Source of the DNA: an uncultured Planctomycetia bacterium | GTDB lineage: Bacteria > Omnitrophota > Gorgyraeia > JABMRG01 | Assembly: GCA_964634945.1 (NCBI GenBank) | Contig: CAZWMG010000002.1 | Span: forward strand, 102,661 to 166,660 | DNA length: 64,000 nt | Direction: 5' to 3' | Shown here: positions 3,520 to 58,184 of the stretch, one piece after another | Numbering within the stretch: the stretch's first letter is position 1 | How the letters are laid out: each line of letters opens with the position of its first letter | Position numbers and translations under genes: made by a program | The notes under the pieces: model-generated | Database searches by the model: none | What the model saw: only the letters and a program-made list of their open reading frames with translations | Told to the model about the DNA's origin: nothing

Positions 3520-6500
3520 ATGTTTTATACCAATAACAGAGGAAGAATAATATTTAAGTGTATTAGTATTATTATAATCCTCTGTTTTTTTATTCAGGAT
3601 ATCGCGTCAGCGACTAATGGCCTGCCATTATGGTCAGTAATTAATGGAAACCGTGTGCTTGATGCCCGCGCAAAAGATTTCACCAACCTCGCCAAGATAG
3701 AGATCCCAAAAGATTACGGCATAATCAAAGAGATCCATAATACCGGAAGCGATAAGATAATAATCAATATCCAGGACGCGCACGCTAATCTAGGTGCCCA
3801 GGAATCGATTAACAAGCTTATAGAAAGCCTTGATAATGATTACCAGCTCAAGCTTGTGGCATTAGAAGGTGCTAAGGGGAATGTAGATACCTCATTGTTT
3901 CAGTCTCATCCTGATAATAATGCCAGAAAAAAGATAGCAAAATACTTTTTAGACAGAGGCAAGATAAACGCTGCTGAATATTACAAGATAAGCTCAGATT
4001 CAGATATAAAACTTTACGGCGCGGAGAATGGCTCGCTATACAGAGAAAACGTTAAATCTTACATAGACTCGCTAACTAATAAGGGCAGCATACACAAGGC
4101 TATTATTACCTTAAAGAGAGTAGTCTCACAGCTTAAATCTAAGGTATATTCTAAGCAGCTCCTAGAGCTTGATAGAAAGAGGCTAGAATACAGGACAGAC
4201 GCAATATCATTTAAGGAGTATTGGAAATATTTAGGCGCGCAATCAAGCAGGTTGAGGATAGACATATCAGACTTTGAGAATATTCGCGCTCTTCTTGATG
4301 CCTCAGAGCTTGAGGATAGAATAGATTTTAGCGGTGCGGAAAAAGAACGCCAGGCATTGATAGAGGTGCTTACAAACAGCCTTACCGGCGATAATATAGA
4401 GCAACTCTTATCGGAAAGCATGTCTTTTAGGTTGGGTAGAATACAGCCGTCAGTATATCATAACCATTTAAGGGATTACGCCCTGTCATGCGGGATAGAT
4501 ATATCATTGTATCCTAATCTTTCTGGTTATACAGATTATGTCAATATCCACGATAAGGTCGCATTGGACTCACTCTTTATTGAGCTCGATGAGCTTATAG
4601 ATAGCGTGCAATCACAATTAGTCCGTAATGATGATCAGCGCCTGCTTGCCTCGATATCAAAGAGAGCGGATATTTTGATAGAACTTTTAGATGCCAAGAT
4701 TGTAAATAGAGATCTGCAGTATTACAAATCGCATAAACAGGATTTTATACCTCAGAACATAACGCACGAATTATCCCCTTTAATGGCAAGGTATGGCATA
4801 GAGGTTAATCTCGTACCTGAGATGAGGGTAATTTTAGAGGCGCTTCCCTCTGTAGAGAAATTCTATGATTTAGCGACAAAGAGAAACAAGGCGCTTGTTG
4901 ATAATACACTAAGCAAGATGCAAAAGGATAATCGTTCTCTGGCAGTGCTTGTAACAGGTGGTTTCCATACAGAGGGTATCGCTAATATATTGAGAGACAG
5001 AAATATATCATATATGGTGGTATTGCCAAAATTTTCGAAAGATGCGCTTGACAGGCCTTATGATGATATTGTCTTGAATAAGCGCTTGCCATTTGAAGAG
5101 GTGCTCTCAAAAGGTGAATACTATCTCCAGGCACCAAGTATATTCTCAATGTTTGAACCTGTGGCAGAACAGAGAATAGGTCTTTTAACCTTTATACTAC
5201 TTCTTTCGTTAGGTGACATGCAGGCAATAGATAGCGATGCCTTTGTGCAGTTGGGTAAGGATATATTTAAGGTAATTAAAAAAGGCCAGGGCATAACAGT
5301 AGAATCGATATCATCAGAAACTGACCCACTTACAGTTGAAGACAATACCGAAGAGACCGCTCGAAATTTAGTTAAGGTGCTTGAAACATGGAATAAAAAG
5401 CGCAGAAAAGAAGAGTCATCTGGTGAGGTGTTAAATAATACGTTGACACCGAATGATCTCGAGATATTAATCAGGAACATGCTTAAGGATACAGAACTTG
5501 GCAGGTCCGAGTTTGAAGAGACCGAATTAACAGCAGCGGTAAAAGATTATAAGAAGATAGTTTTGGAAGAGTCTGCTATCAAAAGCGCGGATTCCGCTGC
5601 TCAGGAGATACTTGAAAGGCAGTTTCAGAGGGCATTTGAGAATCTGCAAAGCTTAAAAGGTAAACCAGGCTATGATTTAGCAAAGCGTAAATTAGAACAG
5701 GTGCCGGCATATAAACACAGACTCGCTACGGCATTAGAGAATGTAAAGACTGAAGAAGACGTTGCTAATAAGGCCCATCTTGATACCTTGACAAAAACAT
5801 CTTCAAGCGGTTTAGGTAAACCTGTTAAGCATTTATACGGTAGACATGAGCCGGAATGGGAATCGATAGTATCGGGTTTAACATCATATATTATTGCGGT
5901 GAATCTTGTGAGCTTTTCGTTTGACCGAATGAATAAGGCCTACGTTACTTTAGGTGATGATATATTCTTTGTTTCTGTAAACGAAGACACCGAAAGCCTC
6001 GGTGATAAATTTTCAATCAGAACCAGCACAAAAGAGGAGATGGATGCGGATAGCGTAGAAATATTGCGCCCCTTAGCGAATGACTGGGTCAAGGGTTGGT
6101 CTGATATATTATATGATAGAAACAGACGCAGTGTCCAATTTGCGCTTAATGATATAGATACCATGATGCGTCATATTATGAGTTATAAGGGAAGTAACGC
6201 CATGATTATGAATGTTTTGGATGATCCTCGCGTAGAAAAAGAGGTACATAAATATATTGAAGTATTGTCGCCCAAAGTTGAAAGCGCGCTGAATAAGCAA
6301 TTAGAGAATAGGTTAAGCAATATTGAGCTTGATAATAGTTTGCCTGCGCATCAACAGGGTATAGATGAATTATATTATCTATATGGCAATAAGGCACAAG
6401 AGGTTCTTAAGGCCCTATCAACTCCGGATATTGCCAAAGCAAAAACATCCTCTTCTAGTGATATTACATCAATGCGTATATCAAAAGATCAGGAGGAGAT

Positions 6501-9500
6501 ATTAAGAAGCCTTAAAAGTGATGAAGATAAGCGAGCATACATAATGGGTGAAGCAAGAAAAGCATTAGAAGAGTTGGAGGATGGTGAACATGGTGCAATA
6601 GATAAGATTATCAAGGAATTTTTAGCCATAACTACTAGGCTCGACATAAGAGAAGAGGAAGTAAGGGGATGGATATCTGAGATATTGGGAGTGGATTATG
6701 TTTCAAAAGATCCTAGCTCAAAATCAGCTTCAAGTGGGCAGATACTGCCAGCCATCTCAAGTGGTTACCAAGAGACGATTGACTATTTGATGACTTCTGA
6801 TGGTGAAATGTACATTCAGAATCATTTGATAAATTATAAAGAACTTATCAGTAAGATAGTAGCGTTAAGGCTGTTTATGGGGTCTGAGATAACAGATGGC
6901 TTTAAAACAGCCCACTTAAATAGTATTTTCTTATCAATCAATGAATTATATGATAAGTTGAAAGAGCTAGCGCCGGCTTCTAAAGACAAGCAAATCTTGG
7001 AGGAATATAAATATAGAATAGACCAGTATTACACCAATATGATACAGGAAATAAATCGCACCATTGCTTTACACGCGCTTGCTCTGAAGAGCAAGACAGA
7101 AGCTATAACAGATAAAGCAAAATTTAAAAGATACATGCAAGTCTTAACAGACACAGTAAGTGTTTTTAGGAATACAGAATCTGGCATAGCTAATATAAGC
7201 GAGGAAATAGATAACTTAATGAATGAAGCTCAGGAAATAAAATTAAGAGAGCTTGCTATAAAGGATTTTTATGAGCTCGGGCATTCTGCCGAAATATTCA
7301 GTGAGGTTAAGGATGTAGCGGGGATAAGAAAGGAACAGATCTCAGAAATATTAACGGAGGCAAAAAAACAATCGTCTAAGTTATCTAGCCTTAAAAAATT
7401 AACAGAATTAGCATTACCAGGTAATGAAAAGCTAGTGCAGGAGATTGAAATTCAGAAAGAAGCTCTTGACCAGTTACTTAGTACGGCAAGAGGAATGGAT
7501 AAATCTATCTTATACGGGGAAATAGTAAACACGTCAGAAGAAGATTGGCAAAATACGTGCAAGGGATTCTGGAAATTCCTCAATCGAGGCAAGAGAACCG
7601 TAATAAGGCGTATGAGCGATAAAATCAGAAATCTGATGAAGCATAGAATACAAGAGGGATTAAAATTAGATGAATCGAAACTAGCATTATATAGAAGCAA
7701 GATAAGCGATATTTTCTCAGAAGAGAATAGGTCAATAAAATTTCAAGAATCGCGATTTGTTATCTTGAATAGCGTTACATCAATCTCTAGAAAATTATCT
7801 AATTTAAAGGGAAATATTACAAGAACAAATAATCGTTTAAAGGCAGCATCCGCAGAGAATATTGCAACATATAGTGAAAAACATAGCCAGGCAGTGAGAA
7901 AGTACAAAGCTTACTTAATAGAATTAGCTAGCGTTAATCCTGATTACTATTATCTTGTGAAGTCGCGCTTTACAAAGGATCATCTTAAGTTTACCCAAGG
8001 GCTTGATTTTACAGCTGGTAGAAGTCTTCTGGAAGAATGTGATACTATTGCGAAACGAAGCTTTAGGAATAATCCTCGCGCGTTAAATAATGAATTATTC
8101 CCATTTGAATTAATAGCAAGGTTGCTTGCTTTAGGATATTCATATAAAGAAGCGAGTCAGTTGACATGGTGTATTATTAGGCCTGAGCAAGAACCGTCTT
8201 TGGTATTGACTGCAGATGCTATACTGGGCTTAGAAGAATTAGGTGTAAAATATAGTGCAAATAGCTCGGTTTTGCCGATAAACAAGAATGCCTTACGTAT
8301 AATAAAAAGTATGGATCGTTATAATCGCAACATAGCAAAAAGCGAAGCAATATTTGCTAAAATTGAACAGAATGCTGTAATGGCATCAAAAAGCTCTTCA
8401 AGCGGAGAAAATAATGCGCAAGATATTATAAGATCTTCAACATGGCTCAATCAGTATTTATCATATGAGAACTCGGAACATGTAGATACGATTAAGAGGC
8501 TTATGGAGAAACATAGTAACTTTTTGGATAAGCTGAGAATTCTGGAAAAATTAGATAAAGAAGGCATAAATATTCCGTTTGCAATGGGCTTATTCCGCCG
8601 CAAACCATCTGTCTTAGAAGAGAGAATACGCAAATTACATGGTATCTTTCAAGATAGGCCTATAACTAACAATATGCTGACTGACTATTCAAAAAATCTT
8701 GAAGATCAAGAAGGGGAAGGGACAATGGAGTCTGTCTTGAGTCAAGTAGGCGCGAGAGATGGGGCAGAGCCATCTGTTGATAAGCAAGCAGAAATCGAAG
8801 GTGAATATGTATCAGGACCAATAGACGATGCCTTGGAAGAGATAGCGGGCATTTTACAAGTAACATCATTCCAACCAAAATCATTAGAAGATGCGATAGC
8901 TGATATAGAGAAAGAGCTAGAAAGACCTTCCGAAGCTCCATCCGGAGAGATGGCAAGGATTTTGGATGCAACACCGCTATCGCAGCCAGAATTATTAGTG
9001 GGGGAGCCCAAGCCAACTATAATAGGTACTGAAGAAAAAGCAGATGCTATTTACATGGGTAAGGTTTTAAAAACTGCTAAGGATTTATCATTTGCCGAAC
9101 AAACATTACAGGGCAGATTGGACGCATTAGATGAGCGCGCCAGATCGCTTAAACAAAAAGATAAACATGACCTTAGGTATATGGTCAGCGCTCTTAAAGG
9201 TGATTTAGGTTCTAAGATTACAGTAAAACTCTTCTCTATTAGCTCACGATTAGAAAGCAAGGCCCCAGGATCTATTTCTATCAGCGAACTGAATAGGTTT
9301 GAAAAAACTCTTGAAGATGTCAAGACTGAGATGGCCGGCTTATCAGAAAATATAGATCACTTAGAACAAACATCAGGCGTTGCAACTAGATCTGAAATAT
9401 CAAAAGAAGAGCAAGGGAAAACACTGCCTAGGAAAGGTAAGGCAGCATCTTCCGAACAGATACAGAATATACAAAAGACCGTGCAGGGCCTATTATCTGA

Positions 9501-12500
9501 TTCGCACGTACTACAAAGTAGATCAGATAACCTTTATGCTCAGGTTGAGAAAGCCAAAAAGCGTAAACTTTCTAGAGAGACCTTGCCTGTCATAGATACC
9601 ATTAATAGCGAAATAGGTTTATTGATATTCAACACATTAACCCCTATTAGCAATATATTGAATGAGAGAGCAAGGCAATTTTATAATACTGAATTAGTTG
9701 ATCTTAACAGACGCCTTAAACAAGCCAGAGTAGAGGCAGACAGAATAAAAACTAATATAGATGGACTGGAAAAGAGAATAAACGCTTCTCTGAAAATTAC
9801 AACAAAAGAAGAGGTTCCAAAAGAGGCCCCAAAAGCAGATGCAAAGATAGGAGCTGAAGCCAGATCCAAAGCAGAAGTAGATTTGCTGAGTGAACATATT
9901 TTAAAGATAGTAACAGGTAAAACAGAAGGCCTGATATTCGCTTGGATTATTGATAGATATGAAAAAGCAGATACAGAGCAGAAAAAAGATGCTATTAAGC
10001 AGGAGCTGGGCAAGGCATATTTCGGGGTTACAGATTTTAGCATTGTAGACAAGAAGCTACGTGCGATAAACTCCCTTTATAAATATTATAAGAGTAAGGG
10101 GCTTGATATAGATATACCTTTGCTTGCAGAGCTTTTTAATCATAAAGATAAAACCCCTGACCAAGTAATAGATTTATTGGTAAGGGCGTTTAATGGAATT
10201 AGGCCGAATGAAGCGCTTAAAATAAATAATAACGCTTTTAACATAACTCGTGACTTATTAGAAAATTATCCCTCTCTAGAAGATTATCTTACTGATATAA
10301 CCATGCTCTTTAGGCCTGCAAAAGATGGCAGTATAAAGGTCGAGACTACTCTTATAAGATTAAAACTAAAAGCAGATAGCAAGGGAGCAGACGCAGCCAG
10401 CATAGCCGTAGGCAAAATATACAACTTAGTATCAGAGAACCTGCCTGAGAAGATTAAGGCCCAAGTACAAGAGGCAGAAGGCGCGGTTTCTTATTTAATG
10501 AAGCCATCAAAAATCCAGCAAGCATTGCTTGAAAAAGCAGGCTACACAGAGTATAGGCCAGGCCAGGCAGAGGCTATGAATATGCTTGTAGATGCAATAT
10601 CCGTTGAATTAAGAGCAGGTGGCGGTAAGACTATTGTATTAGGTGGTTCCGCGCTTTTAAGGCTTGAAGAAGGCAAGATACAGGGTGAAAAGGTATTTAT
10701 ATTGCTTCATGAAGATCAATTAGTACAGCAGGCCTTAGAAGGTGAGGATGGAATTAGGATGGGTGAAATCTTAAGTAAATGTGGCAGGGTGACAGGCTTT
10801 GTGCTGCCTGATGACAATACCCCTAATAAACTGCATTATGTTATGTATAAAGACGGCAAGGAGTTTCGTAATCCTGACAATACAGAGATATCAGCTGAGT
10901 ATTTTTATGCGGAATGTGAGATTGTGTATGCTGCCACAGAGAGGGTTATACACAGATATCAAGCGGAAATGCTTGGGAGTGAAAAAACAGCTTTTATTAA
11001 CAGCCTAAAAAGCAAAGAGGGTAAAGGCGTATTTGCACTATTAGATGAAGGCGATATACAGCTATTGTCTGATAACCCATGTGTAATATCCGGTATGCCG
11101 CTTGAAGACTACGCTGAAAGAATACAGGCAAGAAGATATATACAGTCGATGCTAAATGATGAAGTATTGCCTAAAAACTTTAATTCAGAAAAAGAGAAAC
11201 TCACAGAAGGCACAGATTTTTTAGATTATGTAAGAAAAATCAAGTATTTAGATATAGCGGAAGGTTCCGAAGAAGCCTCGCTTACTTCTAAGGGAAAATC
11301 AAAAATAAACAGGATGAAAAAGGCTATAATTAAACTCGCTAAAAAAGACGGTACTTATAATGAAACATTAAAGCATATCATAGAAGTATATTATGGCGAG
11401 TTTGTGTTGGAGGCTCTAAAGGCAAATATATTCTACAAAGAAGGCGATAACTTTACAGCTATAAAGGATGAAGATGGCAGAATTACCAATGTGCATGTTG
11501 TAACAAAAGATCTTACCAAGACAAAAAAGGGCATGTCTTTTGGAGAAGGCATGCAGCAGGCGATAGAAATAATGGCAGAGGTAAGGGGAATACATGTTCC
11601 CGGAGGGCCTGAAACAGGGGTAACTGCCGAAACTATGACATCGATGGCAGATACGACACAAGGGTTTTTAGAAAACAAAGATATTGTGAATGATTTCGCG
11701 GCTGCCAGCGGAACCATGCAGATAGATAGATTTAAAAGTAAGTATGAGGGCAAGAAAGTTGAAACAGTTAAAGGCCTCCCTGAAAAGCTCGATGAAAGCG
11801 CGGGATATACTGTTTTTGAGCAAGAAAATCAAAAGTTTGGAGAACTTATAGGAAGGTTGGGAAAGAGGCTAGGAAATAATCAGCCTGAGGTATTTTTTGC
11901 TGAGTCTGACGCGAAGGCAGAACGGCTCAAAAAACTAATAAAAGAAAAACTTAAGAATGGGCTTGAGGAAAACGGAATCATTATCCATATAGGTGATGGT
12001 AAGAATCCTGAGGGGTTGAGAAATGCTATTAAATATGCCGGTTACACGAATGTAATTACAATATTTACAAATATAGCTCAACGCGGTATTGATATTGAGA
12101 TAAAAGGAGAGAGCCTGCTTTTTGATGAGAAGACAGGCCGGTATAGAGATGGTGATATTATCTATGAGAATAGGCTTGCCGCTCCGGGGCTTTTTGTTAC
12201 TACTACAACGTCACAAGCCTGCGCGATAATTGAGCAGATGAGAAAACGCGCGGACCGTGGAAAAAATAGAGGTACATGGGAAGGGCTTGTATCATTAGAT
12301 GAGGGAGATTTGCGTTACAGAGAATCTCTTGACCAGCAAAGAGCAGGCCTGCGCAAAATAATAAAAGAATACGCAAAAGAACAAAATATGCTGATAGAGG
12401 TACAGGTAAAACGCATAATACTTGCCATGAGGGATGAGATAAAAGATATTAGTCAACAGCCGCAGGAGCTTGAAGGCAAATTTACAAGGCAAAGAGATAT

Positions 12501-15500
12501 AATAGCTAAGCGCACAGGTTCTCTAACAGCATTTAAGGAATTACTCGCAAATCTCCACTCAGGGATAATATTAAGAGCTATAGAGGAATCTTTCTCTCAG
12601 GGGCAAAGTTTAGATGAAAAACTAGAGGAGATAAGAAGGCTTATAAATAGCAGGCTGAGACAGCAAGAGCTTGTTGAAGAGATGCGGGATATTATAATAA
12701 GCGAAGAAAATGATAATAATAAGAAAAGAACGGAATATGAAAGAGAAGTTAGTAAATATCAGGCAGCGCTTTTAAGGCTAAAAGAGTCTATTGCGGGCTC
12801 ATCCGATAAACTAAATACTTTTCTTGAAACCATTGGGGCTGATAATTTAATACCTCAAGAACCAGATAAGCGCGCGGCATTACTGGAGGTTATAAATCAA
12901 CGTCTTATAAATGAACTGGCAAAATTCCAGACAGAACAACAGCGCTCAAGAAAACAGCTCGACCGCCTAGCGCATGATGCGCAGCAAGGAGTTGCCGGTG
13001 CATTTACACAATTCGATGCTGTTATCGCAAAGTCTACACAGGTAGCGCGTGATTTTAGTTCTAGGATTAACAGCAAGGACGGAATAAAAACATTTTTAAG
13101 CGTTATTCTTGCAGGGCAGGCAAAAGGTAAGGTTTCTGAGGCTAAGAAGCGTAAAGGCTTAACAATGCCCACAAAAGCATTGCCTGTTCTGGCTTCCATT
13201 CTGGCTGTATTAACAGGGCTTGTCTCGGTTTTATATAGCGTTGGAAGCATCAATACATTATTGTTGCCTTCTATTTTGGGGCTCTCTACTGTATTCCCAT
13301 TACTCTTTCCAATTATGGGCATAATCGCGGCGATGTTTTTGATCGTTAATATATACGTTCAACAAGGCTATGGCAAGAAGATAGGGGTTCTAGTCAAAGA
13401 ATCAGCCAAAGACTTTTTCAAGATTACAACAGGCACAAAGAGCATTGATACAGGTAGCCAGCTTGCTGACGCAAAGGCTTTCTGGGCCTCATTTGGAAAA
13501 TTTGCAGGTACAACATTATTGTTTCTGTTAGCAACCCCTGGACTTTGGTCAGGCGCCGGTATGTTAATAGCAGCGATTATAAACCCAGGTATAGTTATAT
13601 TTGGCTTACCTGTTATACCTTTAGCTTTTATAGTACTATGTTTTTCATTATTAGCAAACCTGACATTCCACCGTGTATTTAACAGCCAACTTGAGCGACA
13701 AAGGCATATAACACCTACCAGATTTCAAGCAGGCCTTAACGCCTTTGTGAGGGCTATTGCATTAGGCATAGGTATTTCATTTGCAATTCAAGTTGGCACA
13801 GGTGCTGTTTTGCTTACGCTTTTACCGATAACCGCTATTGTAATAACAGCCATAGTTTCATCTTTGGCTACAAAAAAACAAACAGGACGGTACTATAAAG
13901 AAAAGCTACCGGAATATATAGGTTGGGTTACAGGAGTTATCGGAATAGGGGTTGTGCTTTTACTTGCTAGCTGGATAGGTGCCGCTGCTGTAGCGGGAGT
14001 TGCAATGCCCGCATTACAGGTCGCATTGGCAGTTGTAGGTTTAGGGACAATATCTCTACAGTCTCTCAGTGCGGGCAAGGCCGCTAGTATCGCTGTTGGC
14101 AAAGTTAGTGATTCCTGGAAAAAGAAACAGGTATGGATAACGAGTTTTATCCAGAACCTCCTGCCCAATAACAGAACCATAATAATGTATTCTATGATGA
14201 TAGTAGCAATCCCTCTATTAGTAGGCGGCGCTGTTAATACGATTTTGGTTGTATTGGCAAGCGGAATAGCTATTTGGCTACTTAATAAATTTAATGTTTC
14301 AATAGGAAAGCGGTTAGGTCCTAAGTGGTCAAAGAGATTAGGTGGCGTATTTGGGCAAGCGATGATGTATTCAGCCGCGACAACACCGATTGTGCAATTT
14401 ACACAAATGGCTAATCAAATGGATGAAAGACAATACCGGCAAACACATATTACGCGGGTATCCGAAGCGATAAAACAAGGCCAAAAGAATTTTCAAGACA
14501 CGCTTGGAGAAATAGAAAATTATAGTCCCGATCAGCTCAAAGGGCTAAAGAACCTTACGAAGAATATAGAGGGGTTTGTAGATGGAATAATTACAGGTAA
14601 ACCTGCTCCAACAGCTGTACCTGATTTAACAAAGGAAAAAAAAGAGAAAAGAGAAAAGGTAGAGACAGCTGAAGTAGGAGAATCAAAAGAGGCACAGCCC
14701 CGCGCACCTGCATTTACTCAAACCCCACAAGTAAGAGAAGAAGCAGAAGCTGTAGCCAAAGCAGAAGAGGAAGCCAAAGCAGTAGCAGTGAAGAAAGCTA
14801 AGCTTCATGTCCACACAGTTAAAAAAGGTGACAGCTTATGGAGATTATCAATAAGGTATGCTAAAGGAGAGAGCAAGCTTTATCAATTGAGGTTATTCGC
14901 AGAGATTCTTAAAGTTAATAAGCAGTTTACTGATCCTCGCATTATACATCCCGGAGACAAAGTAACTATTCCGGTGTTAAGAGCTACAAAAATTGTACAA
15001 AAAACAAAACCACAGGTTTATGTAGTTAAAAAAGGTGACAGCTTATGGAGATTATCAATAAGGTATGCTAAAGGAGAGAGCAAGCTTTATCAATTGAGGT
15101 TATTCGCAGAGATTCTTAAAGTTAATAAGCAGTTTACTGATCCTCGCATTATACATCCCGGAGACAAAGTAACTATTCCGGTATTAACAGGTACAGTAGT
15201 TTTAGTTCCACCCCCACCGCAAGAAAAGGTAAAGGTAGAGTTAAAGGAGAAGGCAGTGGTTGCGGTACCTCTGCAGGATAAGAAAGAAGAGCAACCGGTA
15301 AAAGAAAGAGTGCAAGATACAAGCGTACAAGTTAAGGGTGATAAGGCCGCAGTTGCGGTGTTACCACAGAAACATAAAGAGATTAAGCCAAAAGTAGCTC
15401 AGCCCATAGCTAAAAAGAAGGATACTGCAGCGAAAGCAGCTGTTGGCAAGATTAGTGTTGCGCCTATAGTAGCAAAACCTATTTTACAAGAAACTGTAGA

Positions 15501-18500
15501 GAGGCCAAAGGCTGCAGAGCCTACAATATCCGCACCAGAATCTTTGCCTGTCAGACTCACAGCAGATAAGAGATTATTGCCCCCTGCTGAACCTTTGTTT
15601 CAATTAGCTATTCAAGAAAACTTTAAGCCTAATCCCAAAGATGGAACATTGAGTATCCCCGAAGGATTGTCAAATACGATTCCTGCTAAATATCTTGCTG
15701 ATATGATAGGCGCGCACTATTTCGAAATTCCCCCTAATGTTCAGGGATGGAAATATTTTGATACAGTTATAGAAAACGTTAATAAGCGGTATCCTAATTC
15801 TGTAAAGATAGAGACTCATCTTAATACACGTGATTACATAGGCTTGTTTTATGGCAAAAGAGTAAAGATTGTAAAGGGAGAAGAAACTGTAGAAGTCATT
15901 CAACCTGTGTTGCTGGATATTAAAGATGGTGAAGTCGATGTTACGCCATGGAAAGTGGGAGATGAAGTATCAAGGATTTTAGAGCATAAAGATACAGCTT
16001 TATTGGAGTTCGGTTTAGCTAAAAGATTTGGTGAACTTAGCGCGTTAGAATTTAAAGAGCGCTTGAAGAAGGCAGATGTACTAATAGATTATTATGTCAA
16101 TAATGTCCTAAAAACCAAAGGGGAAGTTGCTAAGGTTGTATTCCCGGGACATGGTGGAGAAAATTATGCAACGTCATATTTTGGCCAAAAAGTTGGCGAT
16201 ATCTTAACAGAAGGCCAGCCTGTAATAATGTCAGCACAGCTAGTACAGCAAGCATCTCAAATACAACAAGCACGCGTTGCTGGACAAGAGAAGAAAAAAG
16301 TTGAGGCAAGTATCCCTAAGAAGTTGCCTGATATTGTTATAGCAAAAAAAGCATCAAAAGCCCCGCCTGCGAAAGAAGCCTTCTTGCAAGAGACGAAGCC
16401 CGAACTTGTAGAGACAGAGGCGATCCCCGAAGCAGTAAGCCGACAGGATTTCGCAAGGCAATTAGAAGCATTAGAAGCTCTTATTGCGGCTAAAGAGGCA
16501 TTAACCCGGGCAGAGAGCAATATAGCAAGCATTCAGCTCAAAAGAGACGATCTGGCAAAGAGTTCATTAGGATTAACGCCTAGCATAGGTTTCTATTCCA
16601 ACAGAGTAAATGAAGTGCAAGGCAGCATAGAAGAGTTGGATTTAAAACTTGCTGCAGATAAGGCAGGAGAAGAACAAGGTAAGCTTACGGTTCAGCGTAG
16701 TGCATTATCAAGGCTTGTTGTAACATTAAGAAACACCTTATTAGCAGGTGAGGTCAGGGCAGGAGACATAAAGGAAGAAGCCGGCAAATTAACGATGAGA
16801 ATAGCGCAGGCCAAATCAGCGGTAGGAGAGAAAAGGGCATATGTGCAATCCGTTCTTGCTCAGGCAGAAGATGCTGGATTAAAAATAAGCGCATCGGATA
16901 GTACTGAAAATTTAAGATCCAGGTTAGACTCATTGAAAGAGCAGGTCCCATTTTCCGCCCTGTTAGTTAGGAAGATTCTTGAATGGATTAGTGGTATTCG
17001 CGAGTGGATAATACAGATATTGATAGAATTTAATATCATAGAAGGCCAAAAAATCTATGGACAGAAAATTCTGCGGAAGAAATCTCCTCCTGCATTCTTT
17101 TCGCCGGTGAGAAAAGCCGCGCAAAAGAGTTTAACAGAGGTTCCCATGCTGCCTCAGATCGGAGATAAGAGGCAGATAATAGACTATGATAATATGACGC
17201 GTGAGCTGGCGTCTATTATATTGCAAAAGGAGGAGAGCCTGCAGGGACGAGGACTTATTACCCAGGTTTACTTGAAGAAAATAATAGAAGATTTTGCCGG
17301 AAAGAGGTCTTTATCAGAAAAAGAAGAGGCCAGGCTCGCGGAGAAGACATTAAGCTATCTTTCAGATGTTTTAAATATAAGAATATTAGACTTAAAAACA
17401 AGAGCTCTTGAAGAGACAAATCCTGACACAGCATTAGCACTGCTTAATGGGCCGCTACAATCTACGAAGAGGCAGCTGCAGATAGTAAGAAATACTATGC
17501 GTGAATATAAGGGGCAAGTTATTAGGTCTGAAAACCGCTCTTATGTTTCAAAGGGTATCGAAGATGCGTTAATGGCAGCTGAAAAGAGATTAAATGGGAT
17601 ACTTAAGAAAGATATAACACTGGGACAATCACAGCAATTAGCTGTTTTAAGCCGTGTATTGAAGGGGGCTAAAGAGGACAAGACGCCTATTACATTAGGT
17701 TACCTGAAGTCGAAGGTGGATGAGGTATTAAAGAGTAAAGAGGTAAAAGATGAGAAGGCCTTGTTGATATCTGTATTAGCAGATGTTAAAGGCATGCCTT
17801 CTCTTGCTGAACTTGAGATGATATATGAGCTTCTTGCCATGATCAATAAAGAGAGGGCAGAAGAGCTCTTGCTTGAGCAGGCTATAGATAAGAGAGCTAT
17901 TGAGGTCATATTTAAGGAAGAGACATTCGGACTTTATAATAAGCCTGGAAGCGTTTTTGAGAGCATTTATAAAATGGCACAGGCCTATACAGAAAGCCTG
18001 CAAGAACTTTATATACCAAGGCCGGAAAGAACTGTGAATTTAAAAGCGGCAATGGATAGACTCAATAAAACAAAAGAAGCGCTTGAATTGGCCTTAAATG
18101 GCAATAGCTGGGGTATGCTTCTTGATGCGCGCTTTTATATGGATATGGATTACCAGAGCGACCTGCTTGCCTCAGGAGAGACAGCAGGCGAATATGGGAA
18201 TGTCTTTGGCGTAAATACAGGACTGCTTATAAAGTTTTCAATAGAATCGAAGAGAATAGCTCCGAAACTGGTAGTAGACTATTTGAATGCATTGAATAAC
18301 ATGAAAGCGATAGAGCAGGTATCCAGGTTTGAGGAGATGGCGCCTTCTCTTTATATTAAGGCAATCGCGGATAGTATACAGTCAAGAGCCAAGGCTACAA
18401 GCGTGGAATTATCTGCGTTAAAAGGCACAGGTTCTACGGCACTCAATAAGCTTTTTAAATTAAAGGAAAGCGCACTGAATGCTAAAGCGCAGGGACTCGA

Positions 18501-27500: not shown

Positions 27501-30500
27501 GCTCATGTCTCAGGACGAGATAAAAGAGTTATTGGGCGCGGATGCTAAGGATATAGATATTGAGCAGCTTATCAAGGATATGGCAAACCTTAGGAGCGCT
27601 GACTGGAACTGGGTCGGAATCGAGGCCTTCGATATTGATAAACATGGTGATATGCTGTTTGTATTTGCGCTTATGGCTCAGCAACAAATAGATATAGATG
27701 GGGCCCTTATTCCTATAGGAACAACAGGCGTGGAAGAGTTATTTGCCTTTATGGGTAACAAAAAGGCAAAAGACGCTATATCTAATCTTACAAACAACGC
27801 GATAGATTTTAGTGCCCCACAGGATATTTACAGTGATAATTTTAAGGCACTTATTACTAATTCCCAGTCATTATATAAAATATATACAATAGAACAATTA
27901 GAACTCGCGACACAGATAAAGCCTTTATCAGAGAGCCTGTTTAATCTGGAGGAAGGCACATTAAGCATAACAAGCCCAGAACACAGAAGGGTCATATTCG
28001 AGAGGGTAGACGATGCTACGGTAGAAGGCTCTGATGTTATAAGCCATCTTAATTCTGTATTAGAGCTTAAGGAAGACTTTGAGAAGAGCTGGGGAGCTTT
28101 AAGTTTTGAAGAAGATAAAGGAACTTCCGGATCAAGGGGGACGCCTAAGCTGAAGTTTCTTGAAGAGATGGCATATATATATGATAAAGCCAAGAAAGAT
28201 AAAGAGGAAGGGCTTTCAAATTCAAGGTTCGCGGATGAAAAGTTTGTAAAGGCTGTAATAGAGTATTCCGGTCAGCTTGATGACGCAGATTTCTCCTGGT
28301 GCAAATCGGGTAATGAGGCCACAGCCCCTGAAGTTTTAAAAGACTGGAAACGCTATTTCGGCACCCTGGCAGTGATATTGGCTTATGAAGGAGAGGTTTT
28401 TAAGTCCTATCCTGAATACGGAGGCGCTTCAAAAGCAGTAGATAATGTCAAAGAACTGCTGTCACATATGTCAAAATTACACGAAAGTATCACAAAGAAT
28501 AAAGATTATAAAAAAGCCCTTCCTGATGATGCTAATTTTGCTGAATTGAATAATGTAGCATGGAAGTTTCTTATATCCGAGGCAGTGTATGAACTTAACT
28601 GGCTGCCTGACGGAGCTGTTATGGGTATAGAGAACAGGGCGAAAGCGCTTAGTGACTCACTTTCAATATTTGATTATGTAGAGAAGATGTATAAAACATT
28701 ACGAGAAGAGGCCCCAAAGATAACTACTCTTGAAGGCAAAGGTATATTAGATCAATTGATTTCAGGTATTGAGCTTACAGATACTACTATGACAGCTGAA
28801 AAGCTGGAGGCGATGAGAGATGTTATAGCATATTACGTAAGCAAGAGGCCTGAATTAGGCGTAGAGGGCGTATTGAACATTACCCAGACTCCTCTTAGTG
28901 TTGATAGCGTTATATTAAACCTAATTGCGGATACCAAGACGCAAGTAAAATCTGTTAATACGACGACTCTGATAGATTCTATGATATATACAAATATTCA
29001 TTTACGTGATGAGATAAAGGCTGATCTAGGGGAAGAGTCTGAGAATGTTGTGGCATACTGGACAGAGGTAGTCAATCGATCATTAAACAATGCAGCGCGT
29101 TCGGAATCTCTCCGGGAGATCGTAGATAAGCTGAAGAAAGATAGTAACTTTTATTATGTATTTAATCAGCCTGCTTATGTAAAACATCCTACAGGTACTC
29201 CTGTATGGGATATGACCGATGGAGCAGCATGGGATTTTCTTTATGGTACAGCTACAAATTACATAGGCCCTGACAAGCCATGGCAGACATCAGAAGAATA
29301 CCTAGCCTCTGTAAAGGATGTAAGAGATATGCTTGATACATATAAGCCTGAGATCGAGAGCTATCTTTCTGATTCTAAGCTTTGGGGCCTTTCAATACCA
29401 AAGAACCTATTGTATTATAAATGGAATGATTCCTCAGCCGAGGGAGCTAATCAGAAGAAGGTAGCGGATATACTTTGGGGCCTTGCTTTATTAATTAATA
29501 GATATTCCATACCGCATACAAACATTGATACCGGAAGCACAGGTACATTGACTATAAAGGACTTGATTAAATTATCGCCTGATCTTCTTGATAACTTAAG
29601 CAACCAAAAAGGTATAGCCAATACTCAGATATTATCTCTTATCCGTGACCTTCATCCAAGAGTTAATGCGAACGATGTATACAGGACAAATGGGAGAAGC
29701 GGCGCTATAATACGCCAGTTATACGCTGATTTTGCTGAGATGATTCGCACTGGTTACTATTATGTGTATACATATGCACAGGATTCATCAGGCAAGGTCA
29801 AACAGGAGCTTGTGCGTGTTAAGTCTGATGAGCCTATTACAAAAGAGCTTATCGAAAGGAACCTGCGAAGGACTAAAGAATTAATAGACGCTGGAGCGCT
29901 CAATTATATTTATACCATGTCACCTGAAACAAATGGCATAAAATATTATGGTAATTCCGAATACAGCCCTATAATAAGGAATTATTTCAATTACATAGTA
30001 ACGCAAGACAATTATAATCAGCAAGAGTTACTGAAGATGCTCCATGCCAAGAGCATGTATCATCAGTCTATAGTAAAGCAGTCCAGCCAATGGAAGGCAA
30101 AGTTCCATGATTTTTATAATATACCCGCTGGAAGCGAGCTTGACCCATTAACGAATAAGGCATATGACGACGCGTTAAGCATCCTTGCGTCAACACTTGT
30201 TATAGGTAGTGTTAAGTATAATCCCGCAACAGGTACATTTGAGCCTACAGGAGCTGTACCTGAATCAGAATGGAATGAGAAGATAAATGACTTTATAGAA
30301 TTACTTCCTATCATGGATGATATCTACGCTAATAATAAGGCTGCTCTAGATAGTATAGCAGCTGCTTATGGCATAACAGAAGAGAGTGATCCGCAGGCAT
30401 ATTATACAATAGCTGCTGATATAGCATACAATTTTAAGACAGGCTACTTACAGTATGACGCAAAGACAGCCACATTCAAAAGAGCATGGCCCGAAGGAAC

Positions 30501-33500
30501 CAAAGGCAACCTTTCTGCTTTTGTGAACAATGTCTTAAATACTGTCAATAAAGAGTATGTAACCAATCTTCAAACGCTTTTTAATAACCCAAGGGTTATA
30601 AGCCTGGCTAAGAATATTTATGGCGCAGATACAGAAGAAGAGGTATCTGCTGTTATTACAACGATACTCAATGATTTTACAGAAGGCTACTTACAGTATA
30701 ACCCGAAGACAGGCCAATTTGATAAATATATATGGCCTGAAGGAACCAAAGGCAACCTTTCTGCTTTTGTGAACAATGTCTTAGGTACTGTCAATAAGGA
30801 GTACTTAAATAATCTGGGCAGTCTGCTTAATAATCAAAGCGTTATAAATTTAGCGAAGAATGTCTATGGAGCAAGCGCAGAGCAGGAGGTATCCGCAGTT
30901 GCTGCCCAGATACTCAATGATCTTGATAAGGGGTATTTGCAGTACAACCCCGCATCAGGAAGATTCGATAAGAGGATATGGCCTGAAGGAACCAAAGGCA
31001 ACCTTTCTGCTTTTGTGAACAATGTCTTAAATACTGTCAATAAAGAGTATGTAACCAATCTTCAAACGCTTTTTAATAACCCAAGGGTTATAAGCCTGGC
31101 TAAGAATATTTATGGCGCAGATACAGAAGAAGAGGTATCTGCTGTTATTACAACGATACTCAATGATTTTACAGAAGGCTACTTACAGTATAACCCGAAG
31201 ACAGGCCAATTTGATAAATATATATGGCCTGAAGGAACCAAAGGCAACCTTTCTGCTTTTGTGAACAATGTCTTAGGTACTGTAACAACAGGGTATCTGC
31301 GCGATCTGAGGACTATCCTTACTCATTCAAGGTTTAATGCTATAGCTAATGCTTACAAAACAAAGACTGATGAGCAGAAATCCGCGGTTGCTACCCAGAT
31401 ACTGAATGATTATAAGAAAGGTTATTTGGAATATAATATTCAACAGAGAAGATTTATATGGAAAAAGTATGATTTTTCTATAACCTTGTTAAATATAATC
31501 AATGAAAGTGCTGATCTGTTAAGCCGGGGCCTGTTGGACAATATGCGCGAATTATATACAACATATTCAGGAAGCGTAGACAGGATAGCGCAGTCTCAGG
31601 GAGTAGTTGACCGTAATTCAACAGAATACAGCTCAATAGTAGCAGACTTAGCTCGCCGGATGATTCTGGAGAAGATTGATCCAGTAGATTTATGGGACAT
31701 GCCCCGTAACATCGAGGACGCGAAATCCTTAAGAGACGCTTTGGCTGCCGACCCTAATCTACTTAGATTTATAACAGGAAAAAATAATATAAATACTCCT
31801 GAAGTTGAGGCCTGGGTTGTCGCGCAGGCAGCCAAGATAGGCCAGGGCATAGACAAGGGTTTTCCTGATTATAACTCGTATCTCATGGTTATGAAGGCAT
31901 GGATGCATATATGGAATGATGTCTGTGAGCAGATTGGACGCAGGCCTAACATAGATTTAACTTCAGGCTTTGGCTATGAGTTAAGAAACGGCCAACTCTA
32001 TTTAAAATATTATAGCGGGGATTATTCCGGTATAAAGATAGGTGTTGATAATCAGGATCTGGCTGATATTACTGTGACATTGGTAAAGGGCAATGAGGCA
32101 TCTGCTGATGAATACGCTACATGGCAGGTAATGCAGCAGGTAATAAACAAGGAAAGAAGGATTTATAAGATAGCTGATGCCGGGCCCGGTTACGAGAATG
32201 TGCAAAGCGCGTATCGCGGCGATATTAAGGTAATAGAAAAAATCTATGCTTATAAGGAGCAGATACCGGGATACCTCTCTAAGGAGCCGCTTTGGACTGA
32301 AACAAATACCTATGATGTCCGCACAGGAGCTCCAATCAGAGTAGAGGCTCACCACTCTATAATAGAATATTCACGTGAGTATCATGATTGGTATGAAGTA
32401 CCGCGCGATGAACGCAATCCAAGTTTTGGTTTTATAAGATCAACCATGCCTATAGGTGGAGTTATCAGAAGCGCAGACGGGAGTTTAAAAGAGAAGTTTA
32501 CAATAAGCGACATAGATAAAGAGAGAGGCACCTTTGTCCTGCAGGTAGATGTGTATGCGCAGCAAGATGGCAAGGATATTGTTATAGCCACAAGAAGTGA
32601 GATATGTGATATCGGCACAGGTGGTGTTTTGGATCAGAAGAATAGCGATGGAACGTATATCAGTTATACCTATAGAGACATACTTTTAAGGATAGCCTCA
32701 AAAGTAGAAGAGTTTGCTGGAACTGATGAGGCCCCGGTATCTGTGCATGAGCTTTATGATTTAGAGGGCCTGCCTGGCGAAGGTATTGCTGCAACAGATA
32801 TAGACCAATGGAGCAATACAAAGACGCATGATCCGCACGGGGCGCTTGTGGCTCAGACGGATATAACTGTTGCCGGCAATACGACTACCTCTGTATATCG
32901 CAATAAAGATACACAGAAAGAGATAGTAAGAGTTGAGCGGGATGAGCAAGGCCATATAATAAAGATAGGCATGTTTAAGGGGCATGTCCGTGATGAGGAA
33001 ACAGGCGACTACTTGGCAAGAGTTGAGACAGTAGATCCTGTTAGGGCAGGATGGGCCAAGTCAGGCCTTGATATGGAGGCTTTTGTAAGGGATATGGCCG
33101 CCTCTAATTCAGGTAAAGAGTTTATAGATCTTGATCCTAAACTTGATAAGTCGTTGATTGAGACAAGGTTATATAATGGCCCTAAATTAGTTGAACTGAT
33201 ATCAGAATCACAGGCAGGTAAGACCATAACCAAGGTCTATTATGATAAAAGAACAGGTAATGAGGCATTTAGAGTAACAAGAAATGCTAATGGCGAGATA
33301 ATAGATATAGGTATTTATAGAGGCTATCAATATGAGGATAAGATAAGCGGCGCAATATTGACATTGGAAGAGGCAAAACAGATTTATGGCAAAGATTATA
33401 TAAAAGAGACTTATAGGCTAGCGAAGGTTGACAGGCTCGATGTGCAAAAAGCCGGGTGGGATGAGATTATGGATACTACTTTCGGCCGCATGCCCGCTTC

Positions 33501-39500: not shown

Positions 39501-42500
39501 CATACTATTGGCGCTTAAAGATAAGAAATTAGTAGACTCGGAAAATTCTATTATTTACAGGGGTTTGTATAAAATATTTAAGAAAACAGAAGATCACCCA
39601 TATACTTTGTTAGGTTACGGATTTATGCCAGGGCTCTCAAGCAAGTCATTTTTAAATGTTATTTCGTTTAATGCTGACGGGGATAAGCTCAATTTGAGTT
39701 TCAAAGACGTTTTTGATAGATTCGAGTCTCACTTTATAGTATCAATCGGAAAGATTAATAACGATGTTATTGCCGGACCAAACCTCGCAGGCATTGACCA
39801 GGGCGATGTTATATACACAGAAGAGTTGATGAGCCTAATAAACCTACTCCGCTTGGAGATAGAAAATTCCAGGGATATAAAAAACAAGGATTATTACAGG
39901 AGAAGGTTGGAATTCTATTCAAGGTCTCTCAGTCACATAGTTGATATGTCAAAAAACTCCAGCCTGATGGATATTCCGCTGGTTGTATCCATGCAAGATG
40001 GCAAGATAGCGGATACATCCAAAAAGAGTGTGGCTCACAGGCACAGGGCAGCAATTTTAAATAACCTTTATCGTTCATCAATAGTCACTTCAGCGGAAAA
40101 CTTTTACAGCAGTATAGGGTATTCACCTGAGAAGATACAGGGCGGCACATTTTTCCGAAAGCTAAAGATAGCAGCGGATAGACAGGCATCTATGCAAAAA
40201 TCCGAGACACAAGAGATCTCAGATGAGAGTTCGAAAAAATATATTATCGCCTTTATTCTGATGATAGCGGCGTTGGCATCTCTTGGTATAGCAAGTTCTT
40301 TTTACAAGGCAAAGCCGTACAAGTCGACCAAGCCTTCTCCGAAAGGTGATGACAGCGGTGATGGAGAAGGTACCCCTCCTGCTGATGAAGGCACAAAAGA
40401 AGCTGTTGTGGCAGCAACGGTATCAAGCTTACAGAAAATTACTATAAAGGCACTTGCTATAGTTAAAAAGGCGAGCCTGCCGAAAAAACTGATGATCTTA
40501 GCTGTTATGTTAGCAATACCGCTCTTACTATCTAATCCGGCATTGTGTGCTGGATTAGGTCTTCTAACTCAACAATCAGTTGTTGCCCTTACCGGTCTGC
40601 CGCTGATATCTTCCGCTTTGAATTGGATAAGCTCATTAGGTGCGGTTAAATTAATATATATCGCGGTATCGCTTGCCTTTCCGGCGTTAATCCTTGCTTC
40701 AAATTACATAACCTCTTTCGCAAGAAAGATATGGTTTAGCACTAAGATGCGCAGTATCGCAAAAGATGGCAAAGCCAAACTGTACGATAAAGATGACATG
40801 GAAATAGCCCTTACCAGGTGGAACAATATGATTAATATGACCAGCGATGTTTCAGATAAGGAAAATAACGTTGTTGTAAATCACCCCAGAGTAAGGAAGG
40901 CAGACGGACCGATTGAGGTAAATTTCCTTTTTAGTCTTCGGGTTATTTATACATTGGCATTAAAACAACATAAAGAAGAAACAAAATTAAGCGATGACGA
41001 TCTTATAACAAAGACAGATGACCCGCTACTTAATGGCCTTGACACTTTTGTACTTATGGTTGGAATGTATATGCGTAAGGTTATCTATGACTCAAAAAGA
41101 GATGAGAATGGCCAATTAGTAGATAGTAACCACATATGGTCAAGGCTCGAATCTTATTTTTATGAAAAGAGAGAGCTTCTAAGAGATGCGATGTCACAAA
41201 ACAATAAAGCGGAATTTAATGATATACTGATAGATATGGGGATTGCCCCGATAGCGCAAAAGAGCGCAACAAATGAAGCGATATTGGAGATAGTCGAAGG
41301 TTATGGAGATGCAAGCTCTGAGGAATTCAGAGACGAGCTGGCAGAAAGAATAGGTGTTTCAGCTGAAGATCTGGGTGTAAAAAAGTTTGTAGAGGATTTT
41401 GAGAATTTTACTATACAAGAGGATTTGGCAAAACCTATCCATCCATGGGCGCTGCTCGCCGCGCGGCTATTGCCAAGGTTCCTGCTTGCTGCGGTTGGAG
41501 CGCTTATATTTAAGGCAGAGGCATTAGGCGCCACTGGTTTCTTAGGTGCTTTTATCGCAGGCCCATTAGCAGCTTTATGGCCTTATCTTGCTATTGCGGG
41601 AATAGTTATTATTCTGGGCTCATTGCTTAATCTGTATATTGGTAGGCATGCTAAATTAAATAAACTATCCGGTACATTAGGCACTGTTTCGCGTCTTACA
41701 AAAATAGGCGCATTAATCGGGCTTACATGCCTTGTTGCCGCTATTTCGCTTACGCCATTAGCTGCGGCAGGCGCTCCTTTAAGCATAATGTGGTTAGCCA
41801 AGCTTATTATAATCAGCTATCTTACTTTCGAAACATTTAGCCAGATATTCTTCAGGCATTCAATAACATGGCTTTCTCTTAGGTATCATTTCTCACCAGC
41901 TGTATCTACGGGTGGCCCTGGTTCTGTCATATCATATGTTACTTTATACGCGCTTACAATAGCTTTCGGAGCGCTTATGGGATTTAGTACTTATAATTTC
42001 TTTGTACAGTTTCAAGCTTTAGATACAATAGGAAGTTTCTTGCAATTAGTAGGGGGAGTGCTTGTATTTATTAATACCTTATATTTGACTAATTATGGTT
42101 TCTGGCAGATGCTTACCGGTGCAGCTTCAGGGGCCGTAAAGTTCCCACTTCAATTATCAGCCTTGATACTTTCTGCCGGAGTCTTTACCTTTGCCTTGCC
42201 GGCATTCTTACCGATTATACCTATTGCCGTGTTACTGATAAATAAGGTTATTAGTTGGATAGTACCTTTAAATAAAAGAAAGCGCCTAAAAGATGAGGCT
42301 GATGAGCAAGATAAAAAGACAGTTCTTGTATATATGGGCGGTGACGCGCTTGGCATGTTCATTAGATTGGCTGATCCCGTAGGGGAATTTATTAACAGAT
42401 GGAAAGCCTTAAGAGGAGAGAATTCCGAAGTTCTTAGTGCAATCAGAAAAGAACTTGGCTGGAAGGGCCTTACTTCGGAGAAAGAATTAGAGGTAGTAAG

Positions 42501-54564: not shown

Positions 54565-55209
54565 ATGAGAAAGATGTTAGCACTTAGCGCGTTGGCACTG
54601 ATTGCCGTATCATTAGTGGCAACAGGATGCGCCAAACAGGAAGAGATCGTAATTGAGGAGTTTGAGTCCCAGAACGCGGCAACGGGAAAAGATTTTAAGG
54701 TATTCAATATATATACCGATAAGTCATCTCCGGGTAACCATTATATACCTTCAGGCTGGATGGGTGATTTTAGCGACATAAAGATAAACGACCGTTATAT
54801 GGAAGGTGCGCATAGCGGCACTACCTGTATACAGGTAGAGTATCTTCCTCGCCGTTCACAGGGGGCCGGTTGGATGGGAATATATTGGCAGAACCCAGCT
54901 AATAATTGGGGATCTAAAAAGTCAGGCTTTGATCTTACCGGAGCTAAGGAGCTTGTTTTTTGGGCTCGTGGAGCTAAAGGCGGAGAAATAATATCAGAGT
55001 TTAAGATGGGCGGCATTACAGGTGAATTTTCAGATTCTGATTCCGCTGGCATAGGCCCTGCTATGCTTACATCAGATTGGAAAGAGTATAGGATAAATTT
55101 GGAAGGTAAGGATCTATCCCATATAATAGGCGGTTTCTGCTTATCCGCTAACGCTGATGATAACCCTGATGGGTTTATTATCTATCTTGATGATTTAAAG
55201 TACGAATAA
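54565..55209 (+). CDS. Lipoprotein with a beta-sandwich carbohydrate-binding-module-like domain (paralog A of 62607..63209)
   Basis: Lipobox LVATGC. Shares with the 62607 protein the blocks Y.PSGWMGD.SDI, G..C.(Q/K)V.Y, G(A/R)(G/R)W.G.YWQNP.NNWG, DLTGAK.L.FWARG.KGGE.I, G.(K/L)..D..YI.GGF, (I/F)YIDD..YE. Confidence 0.7.
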   Translation: MRKMLALSALALIAVSLVATGCAKQEEIVIEEFESQNAATGKDFKVFNIYTDKSSPGNHYIPSGWMGDFSDIKINDRYMEGAHSGTTCIQVEYLPRRSQGAGWMGIYWQNPANNWGSKKSGFDLTGAKELVFWARGAKGGEIISEFKMGGITGEFSDSDSAGIGPAMLTSDWKEYRINLEGKDLSHIIGGFCLSANADDNPDGFIIYLDDLKYE

Positions 55210-55218
55210 ACATAGAAG

Positions 55219-55270
55219 AATAGGAGATAGCGCCTCTTTTTGTCATAAAGAAAAGGCGCTCTTCCTATTT
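55219..55270 (+). terminator. Imperfect GC-cored hairpin (AGCGCC...GGCGCT with extended A/T pairing) followed by a T-rich tract
   Basis: aataggagatAGCGCCtctttttgtcataaagaaaaGGCGCTcttcctattt, located 10 nt after the stop at 55209. Confidence 0.45.
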
Positions 55271-55285
55271 ATCCGAGGTAATATT

Positions 55286-58166: not shown

Positions 58167-58184
58167 AAAAGTTTTAGGAATAAG

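Follow-up and report, generated by a model that had tools for sequence, protein, structure and literature searches.

In canonical SecA-SecYEG export, and in the accessory SecA2-SecY2 system that exports very large adhesins, a SecA-type motor works with a ten-helix membrane partner whose N and C termini both lie inside. In type II secretion, ExeA/GspA combines a cytoplasmic ATPase, a transmembrane (TM) segment and a periplasmic PG_binding_1 domain; ExeA is of the AAA+ type and has a single TM segment. The closest described relatives of the protein considered here are the giant proteins of Omnitrophota. West-Roberts et al. (2023; 10.1101/2023.11.21.568195) propose that such proteins' SecA-like domains export the giant protein itself, suggest that the adjoining TM regions are a membrane anchor, describe motors that lack the SecA parts that engage SecY, and report that SecYEG is kept in giant-gene genomes. 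They also place carbohydrate importers near the giant genes and treat TM-based localisation as unreliable in giant proteins. Nielsen and Lui (2026; 10.64898/2026.06.07.730766) catalogue 916 long proteins, 20 of which form a group with a SecA-DEAD architecture, and LysM is listed as an extracellular ligand-binding domain of gigantic Omnitrophota proteins by Burroughs et al. (2025; PMC12419801). In the published view, giant proteins act in prey adhesion and wall degradation (West-Roberts et al. 2023; Burroughs et al. 2025). The present analysis concerns a giant open reading frame (ORF) in a 64,000-nucleotide stretch of DNA, hereafter the window, from an uncultured Planctomycetia bacterium placed in the Omnitrophota (assembly GCA_964634945.1, contig CAZWMG010000002.1, positions 102,661 to 166,660), and in particular the interval 13160-15190, where a polytopic membrane domain and two LysM domains follow a SecA-like motor. 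All coordinates below are window positions, and all features of the giant ORF lie on the plus strand.

The giant protein belongs to the published class of SecA-bearing Omnitrophota giant genes, and its layout has already been outlined in the literature. Like the 'Archaeovorin-type' giants, it is of Omnitrophota origin, is encoded by an ORF of more than 10,000 residues, and has many TM regions, some of which adjoin the motor, a divergent SecA with DEAD and preprotein-binding (PP-binding) domains and no wing domain, and a predicted sugar-import locus nearby. Unlike what is found here, LysM is not mentioned in the main text of West-Roberts et al. (2023) or Nielsen and Lui (2026), nor do the portions of these two reports drawn on here treat the membrane region as a conserved domain in its own right. 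In the window protein that region can be delimited as ten helices and a marginal eleventh segment (segment 11), with conserved cytoplasmic loops, after which come wall- or glycan-related modules. The additions to the literature are the boundaries of a membrane domain that is rare, conserved and always fused to the motor, comparative evidence on the sidedness of the regions that flank it, and segment 11 as a defined point at which the topology can be tested.

The ORF list gives a single uninterrupted frame of 14,300 residues (3520-46422), which holds the whole interval as residues 3214-3890. An earlier note on this DNA had read the succession of SecA-like motor, polytopic membrane domain and LysM pair as a built-in translocation and anchoring device, and hydropathy and Pfam show that this order is real. 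In the first 10,000 residues, Pfam matches are limited to SecA_PP_bind (residues 2566-2683), P-loop_SecA (residues 2764-2979) and LysM (twice). The motor, delimited by Pfam and a family profile, occupies residues ~2340-2980 (10537-12459) and comprises the first nucleotide-binding domain (NBD1), the preprotein cross-linking domain (PPXD) and NBD2. A profile of the motor region from five family members (A2) matches SecA structures at E = 1e-46. The match covers SecA residues ~84-583 and in some structures extends to ~677, a span that takes in NBD1, the PPXD and NBD2 and goes no further than the beginning of the scaffold helix. Both Walker A (AGGGKT, residues 2366-2371) and Walker B (DEGD, at residue 2509) are intact, and GxGK, SGTM, RGxD and Q..R..R....G.W are invariant in all five aligned motor sequences; with intact ATPase motifs, the motor is therefore expected in the cytoplasm, where ATP is available. 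With the SecA equivalogs of NCBIfam the scores are 45.6 and 26.5 bits, where the cut-offs are 814 and 800. Pfam finds no SecA wing or scaffold, and a complete scaffold with two-helix finger, a wing and a C-terminal tail are not found. Judged from its sequence, the motor is a SecA-derived ATPase and not a true SecA, because the equivalog scores fall so far below their cut-offs; compared with SecA, it has no distal scaffold, no two-helix finger and no wing.

Between the motor and the membrane lies a helical linker (12460-13164), defined by an exhaustive homologue search with residues 3000-3760 as the query and conserved in all the homologues found, with the motifs EYEREVSKYQ and FQTEQQRSRK. The weak NCBIfam SecA alignment extends into it, to residue ~3101, and the linker is probably a remnant of the first SecA scaffold helix. 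The coupling of motor and membrane domain appears strict. In all 11 informative relatives (P0001-P0005, P0007, P0009, P0011, P0014, L005 and L002), that is, those whose sequences reach far enough towards the N terminus, the motor comes before the membrane domain; the others are fragments that start inside the linker or the membrane domain. In the informative relatives, ~205-300 residues separate the SecA-like domain from the first helix, bridged by the same conserved linker.

The membrane domain itself, delimited by hydropathy and the family alignment, consists of ten helices in five hairpins (residues 3220-3591; 13177-14292). Its helices are TM1 (13177-13242), TM2 (13291-13359), TM3 (13510-13581), TM4 (13588-13668), TM5 (13741-13797), TM6 (13801-13869), TM7 (13918-13992), TM8 (13996-14067), TM9 (14179-14229) and TM10 (14230-14292), and their hydrophobicity, measured throughout as a 19-residue Kyte-Doolittle (KD) mean, is 1.77-2.67 in the window protein. 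This dense hydrophobic cluster is the only clear one before residue 12242, apart from residues 10-28. The count of about 12 helices in the earlier note was too high: hydropathy and the family average give ten strong helices and the marginal segment 11. Averaged over the family, the five turns within hairpins are short (0-15 residues) and hold 0-0.7 Lys/Arg per sequence, whereas the six flanking and connecting loops are long and hold 4.1-7.0 Lys/Arg each. By the positive-inside pattern, both ends of the bundle and all of its conserved motifs are therefore placed in the cytoplasm, on the side of the motor. The motifs in these loops are YLRQxYxKKISxLD, PTRFQxGxNxFVR, ESFIPNSRNIxMY and RYSVNIEKxxGR. 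The invariant positions of alignment A1 are Gly, Pro, Gln and Arg, mostly Gly or Pro. The earlier remark that several of the helices are rich in these two residues is correct.

The domain is rare. Among 1.84 billion cluster representatives, the exhaustive HMMER search recovers 15 proteins (E from 7e-197 to 1e-5), all of which are fragments of very long proteins, and the hydrophobic region aligns over its full length with these homologues at 26-47% identity. Searches of the homologue index with the TM domain alone, with alignment A1 or with the helical linker return no matches, the index apparently not extending to these proteins, and a scan of a metagenome collection with alignment A3 returns two loci that are redundant with P0006 and P0007. 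Pfam, run on 12 aligned members with E up to 5, finds no recurrent family and no transporter family. On these comparisons we regard the membrane domain as new, rare and particular to this clade of giant proteins from Omnitrophota. An AlphaFold2 (AF2) model from a 12-sequence alignment is all-helical and of moderate confidence (predicted local distance difference test (pLDDT) 65; predicted template modelling score (pTM) 0.66). Three more hydrophobic clusters, of roughly 3, 8 and 8 candidate helices, occur near the C terminus of the giant ORF (residues 12242-13703; 40243-44630), where the membrane-domain query (residues 3190-3660) has no second match at E<=1e-5.

The region after TM10 carries further conserved elements. 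A Lys/Arg-rich stretch separates TM10 from segment 11 (LGGVFGQAMMYSAATTPIVQFTQMA; 14338-14412), a weakly hydrophobic, uncharged segment conserved in alignments A1 and A6 with the family consensus GGxxMxSAxxTPMVxYPQxA. Its KD mean is 0.99 in the window protein, the family minimum, and 1.07-1.81 in homologues, reaching about 1.5 or more in four relatives (P0003, P0006, P0008 and L007), and the uncharged run is 19-34 residues long across the family. Past this last hydrophobic segment, alignment A6 defines a helix motif (NYSPDQLKGLKNLTKNIEGFVDGIITG; residues 3667-3693; 14518-14598) with the consensus YSxxQxAGLxxLxxNIxxVxDxxMxG, in which G, L and N are invariant in 14 of 14 family sequences. The same alignment defines an [EQ]xRAP[PT]A motif (AQPRAPAF; residues 3725-3732; 14692-14715), hereafter the RAP motif, which is present in the window protein, L005, P0002, P0004, P0006 and L007 and degenerate in P0001. 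On its C-terminal side the conserved motor-membrane module ends with this motif, beyond which the relatives diverge completely; the motif could be a processing or sorting site. With segment 11, the G..L..N helix and the RAP motif in between, 172 residues separate TM10 from the first LysM domain, so that the LysM pair does not directly follow the membrane domain as had been supposed.

Both LysM domains are genuine: the Pfam match (PF01476) has E = 4.8e-14 and 52.5 bits against a cut-off of 20.9, with its best stretch at residues 3765-3818. LysM1 (residues 3765-3819; 14812-14976) is supported by Pfam, NCBIfam and PDB sequence matches, and LysM2 (residues 3834-3888; 15019-15183) is a tandem repeat that exactly duplicates the LysM1 core. 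Among PDB sequences the nearest relatives of known structure are LytE (1e-7) and SafA (2e-6), compared with which ~9 residues are inserted between the two LysM helices; in NCBIfam the nearest are SafA- and YneA-type LysM, the SafA type at 64 bits. Both copies keep the conserved GDSLW, the Asn that ends helix 2 (ILKVN) and IIHPGD. The LysM of AtlA, which provides the reference hallmark positions, binds glycan mostly through main-chain contacts (PMC4083421), so that, on sequence alone, glycan binding by the pair is putative. In a second AF2 model, which covers TM9 to LysM2, the LysM part is not credibly folded (pLDDT 40-55) and does not bear out the fold. As in the LysM domains of SafA, LytE, YneA and TsaP, the Pfam family, GD[ST]LW, the structural Asn and the IxPG motif are shared; unlike in those proteins, the predicted domains here lie within a giant polytopic protein, 3,765 residues from its start.

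A tandem repeat with a period of 207 nucleotides and 98% identity covers the LysM pair, and within it 159 nucleotides of the cores are 100% identical (14817-14975 and 15024-15182). The identical cores have unrelated flanks, and the pair is a very recent duplication or gene conversion. The LysM content also differs between close relatives: the window protein has two copies, L005 has a single one and L002 lacks LysM, so that LysM is an accessory and not a fixed part of the device. The Pro/Lys/Ala-rich low-complexity stretch that had been noticed after the second LysM is real (residues 3897-4015); it forms a linker (15208-15564) that starts with PPPP and consists of 16% V, 16% K, 14% A and 12% P, and a (G)PPPP motif also occurs after the module in L005, P0001, P0002, P0009 and P0012. 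After the linker, a small conserved domain with an invariant PGHGGENY (residues ~4025-4245; 15592-16254) has no Pfam match and is 48% identical to its counterpart in L002, where it occurs after a membrane module without any LysM.

On which side of the membrane the LysM pair lies depends on segment 11, because ten helices alone leave LysM in the cytoplasm. It is here that the relatives are most informative. The first domain after the module is a LysM pair in the window protein, a single LysM in L005, two PG_binding_1 domains in P0012, MdoG in P0006 and P0004, Glycoamylase with DUF3131 in P0010 and HlyD-like lipoyl repeats in P0008; L002 has a coiled coil and no domain in this position. None of these sequences has a hydrophobic segment between the membrane domain and the first downstream domain, and the five types of downstream domain (LysM, PG_binding_1, MdoG, Glycoamylase/DUF3131 and HlyD-like) are all typically periplasmic or located at the cell surface. 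With domains of extracytoplasmic type downstream and a cytoplasmic ATPase upstream, the comparison therefore argues for an odd number of membrane crossings, for which segment 11 is the sole candidate to provide the extra one. An even number of helices, whether ten or the twelve counted in the earlier note, would place LysM on the side of the motor and so contradict that note's own periplasmic LysM. Its proposal that LysM is a peptidoglycan anchor in the periplasm finds support in the two PG_binding_1 domains that P0012 has in the same position, and needs the weak segment 11 to cross.

The best overall explanation, which we hold with a little better than even confidence, is that a membrane module anchors the motor, segment 11 crosses the membrane and the exported cargo is tethered by LysM. 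The SecA-derived ATPase, the helical linker and the ten-helix domain with segment 11 would form a conserved three-part module of a small clade of Omnitrophota giant proteins. In this module the helix bundle may be both an inner-membrane anchor and a docking platform, offering its conserved Lys/Arg-rich cytoplasmic loops to the motor. The chain would cross the membrane again at segment 11, probably aided by the motor acting in cis and by the Sec/YidC machinery of the cell, and this crossing would place the lineage-specific cargo outside the cytoplasm. In the window protein the two LysM domains would be the first elements of the cargo; they may attach to the peptidoglycan of the cell itself and hold in place the beginning of an exported region of ~8,400 residues, with the PPPP/Lys-rich stretch after them as a flexible spacer. 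Of the translocation and anchoring device that had been proposed, the domain order, the coupling of motor to membrane domain and a wall-binding role are thus retained, and the channel, the helix count and the direct succession of membrane domain and LysM are not.

Several observations weigh against this explanation. Segment 11 would be a poor TM helix: a crude Hessa-scale sum is +7.4, compared with -0.9 to +3.5 for TM1-10, and its consensus contains two conserved prolines. Taken alone, hydrophobicity gives ten helices and a cytoplasmic LysM, and a standard automated topology predictor may well call ten helices with LysM inside. Both AF2 models are uninformative here, as they merge TM10 and segment 11 into one long helix of low confidence; the second, which runs from TM9 to LysM2 on alignment A6, has a pLDDT of 53 and a pTM of 0.24. 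The absence of LysM from L002 indicates that wall tethering is not essential to the module. A further difficulty lies at the N terminus, where hydropathy and sequence indicate a Sec-type signal peptide or signal anchor (MFYTNNRGRIIFKCISIIIILCFFIQDIASA, followed by TNG; residues 1-31; 3520-3612). It has a positive n-region, a hydrophobic core with a KD peak of 2.42 at residues 10-28, and a site between ASA and T at which cleavage is predicted; these features are conserved in relatives, as is a PxW motif just past the site. Because this signal peptide is present and L005, P0002 and P0005 are without a clear TM segment between it and the SecA-like domain, the global topology is not self-consistent under simple rules, and is paradoxical with a SecA-like ATPase that is presumably cytoplasmic.

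It may be that the protein has ten helices only, with both flanks in the cytoplasm, in which case LysM would be cytoplasmic, or would meet the wall only after release or lysis, and there would be no periplasmic anchor. The ten helices are strong and are followed by a K/R-rich segment past TM10, segment 11 has its lowest hydrophobicity in the window protein, and in the AF2 models it does not turn back to form a hairpin. There is also a weak PDB match of the LysM to E. coli Kbp (E = 0.84), a cytoplasmic LysM protein. Nonetheless, five domain types that are typically extracytoplasmic occur in this position with no intervening TM segment, which makes an all-cytoplasmic arrangement unlikely, and we give the ten-helix alternative a low probability.

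An alternative that seems no more probable accepts export and differs in the target of the LysM pair, which would bind the wall of prey, as peptidoglycan or another polymer of N-acetylglucosamine, after cleavage of the cargo, for example near the RAP motif. This agrees with the published prey-adhesion and wall-degradation view, with the conserved RAP motif between module and cargo, with the glycoside-hydrolase-like genes and sugar importer downstream, and with the variation of LysM content between close relatives, as expected of host-range modules. However, the LysM pair lies only ~130-170 residues from the inner-membrane domain and before the long linker, a position that fits tethering to the cell's own sacculus. 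The cleavage is only postulated, and Pfam finds no peptidase domain in the giant ORF.

A self-contained translocon is slightly less probable than either of these. In such an arrangement the ten-helix domain would be the pore for the ~8,400 residues, the motor would push them, and segment 11 would rest in the pore. One or two helices would suffice for an anchor, yet the motor is strictly coupled to a polytopic domain that is large and conserved. The motor is also without the parts of SecA that engage SecY: its alignment stops at ~583-677, and it scores far under the equivalog cut-off. Segment 11, which is conserved and uncharged and contains proline, is too polar for lipid. The layout of ten helices with both ends inside also equals the helix count of SecY, the only point of agreement with it. 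Against this, channel-like character, which the earlier note had considered, is unsupported, as Pfam, the PDB profile search and Foldseek show no likeness to SecY, MFS (major facilitator superfamily) or flippases. Profile A1, compared with all PDB sequences at E up to 10, finds no SecY, MFS, MurJ or other membrane protein. Foldseek searches of the AF2 model against PDB and BFVD return nothing at E<=0.001 (best TM-scores 0.10-0.18), with no SecY among the matches listed, and against PDB the MFS, MATE (multidrug and toxic compound extrusion) and MurJ folds occur only as noise (E>=0.08, TM-scores 0.10-0.18); the model compared is itself only of moderate confidence. Internal repeats or pseudo-symmetry are not found by hhalign between the five hairpins or the two halves (probability at most 31%). 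There are few conserved polar residues within the helices, where the invariant positions are mostly Gly and Pro, the periplasmic turns are very short, and the reported retention of SecYEG in giant-gene genomes also speaks against a separate pore.

In its strongest form, in which the giant protein would be a SecYEG-independent 'autotranslocon' with its own motor and pore, segment 11 threaded through it and everything from LysM onward delivered to the periplasm, this idea seems to us improbable. An inverted topology, with the signal peptide followed by a periplasmic SecA-like domain, ten helices and periplasmic LysM, would remove the paradox at the N terminus, but was rejected because it would put ~28 Lys/Arg per protein in periplasmic loops and the ATPase outside the cytoplasm.

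The favoured explanation, with its anchored motor and segment 11 crossing, has parts in common with both of the better-known systems. With SecA-SecYEG and SecA2-SecY2 it shares a SecA-type motor and a ten-helix partner with both termini inside, dedicated to a very large exported substrate; in contrast to them, motor, membrane domain and substrate are here one polypeptide, and there is no similarity to SecY. With ExeA/GspA it shares a cytoplasmic ATPase joined via the inner membrane to a periplasmic peptidoglycan-binding domain, for which P0012 even uses PG_binding_1. ExeA is nevertheless not homologous to the module, and this AAA+-type, single-TM protein carries no cargo in the same chain. Within the 64-kb window there are no genes for type II secretion.

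The gene 5' of the giant ORF encodes an AcrB-type pump, whose closest relatives in a one-genome-per-species collection are from metagenome-assembled genomes (MAGs) at 49-95% identity, three of them labelled Candidatus Omnitrophota and three uncultured Planctomycetia. Syntenic giant ORFs also occur 3' of the AcrB gene in MAGs L005 (Omnitrophota) and L002. Between these and the window protein, the N-terminal part of the giant ORF is 57-70% identical and the SecA-like and hydrophobic regions ~22%. A chance or artefactual origin of the feature is ruled out by the ORF, the synteny and the conservation in the family. About 1,650 residues (residues ~750-2400; ~5770-10720) are absent from the syntenic L005 ORF, in which the conserved N-terminal region is followed almost at once by the SecA-like domain; here, orthologous giant genes differ by a large indel. 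Elsewhere in the giant ORF there are two in-frame tandem repeats, one with 3.5 copies of 246 nucleotides (77% match; 30431-31283) and one with 11 copies of 9 nucleotides (ACTCAAAAG; 44846-44945).

Directly after the giant gene, a 1,943-residue protein (46584-52415) is a fusion of nucleoside diphosphate kinase (NDK), UDP-glucose-pyrophosphorylase-like and phosphoglucomutase/phosphomannomutase parts. All four phosphoglucomutase/phosphomannomutase domains are present, and the protein represents an unusual single-chain sugar-nucleotide pathway. The downstream locus (54565-63209) contains a sugar importer of the ATP-binding cassette (ABC) type, with a binding protein (56702-58012) and permeases (58185-60053), flanked by two TIM-barrel proteins similar to glycoside hydrolase family 2 (GH2; 55286-56572 and 60676-62571). 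The importer and the GH2-like genes fit the carbohydrate-import neighbourhood published for giant genes.

How a protein longer than 10,000 residues is exported and retained is an open question, and the SecA-like domains encoded by giant genes of Omnitrophota are the main published clue. That clue is sharpened here, in that the motor is always fused to one rare, conserved ten-helix domain with its conserved surfaces facing the motor. The question is also narrowed to a single testable point, namely whether and how segment 11 passes through the membrane. Annotators should be warned that automatic topology calls can put LysM, PG_binding_1 and MdoG on the wrong side of the membrane. In the family, the module typically precedes a domain related to the wall or to periplasmic glycans, and in this organism that domain is LysM.

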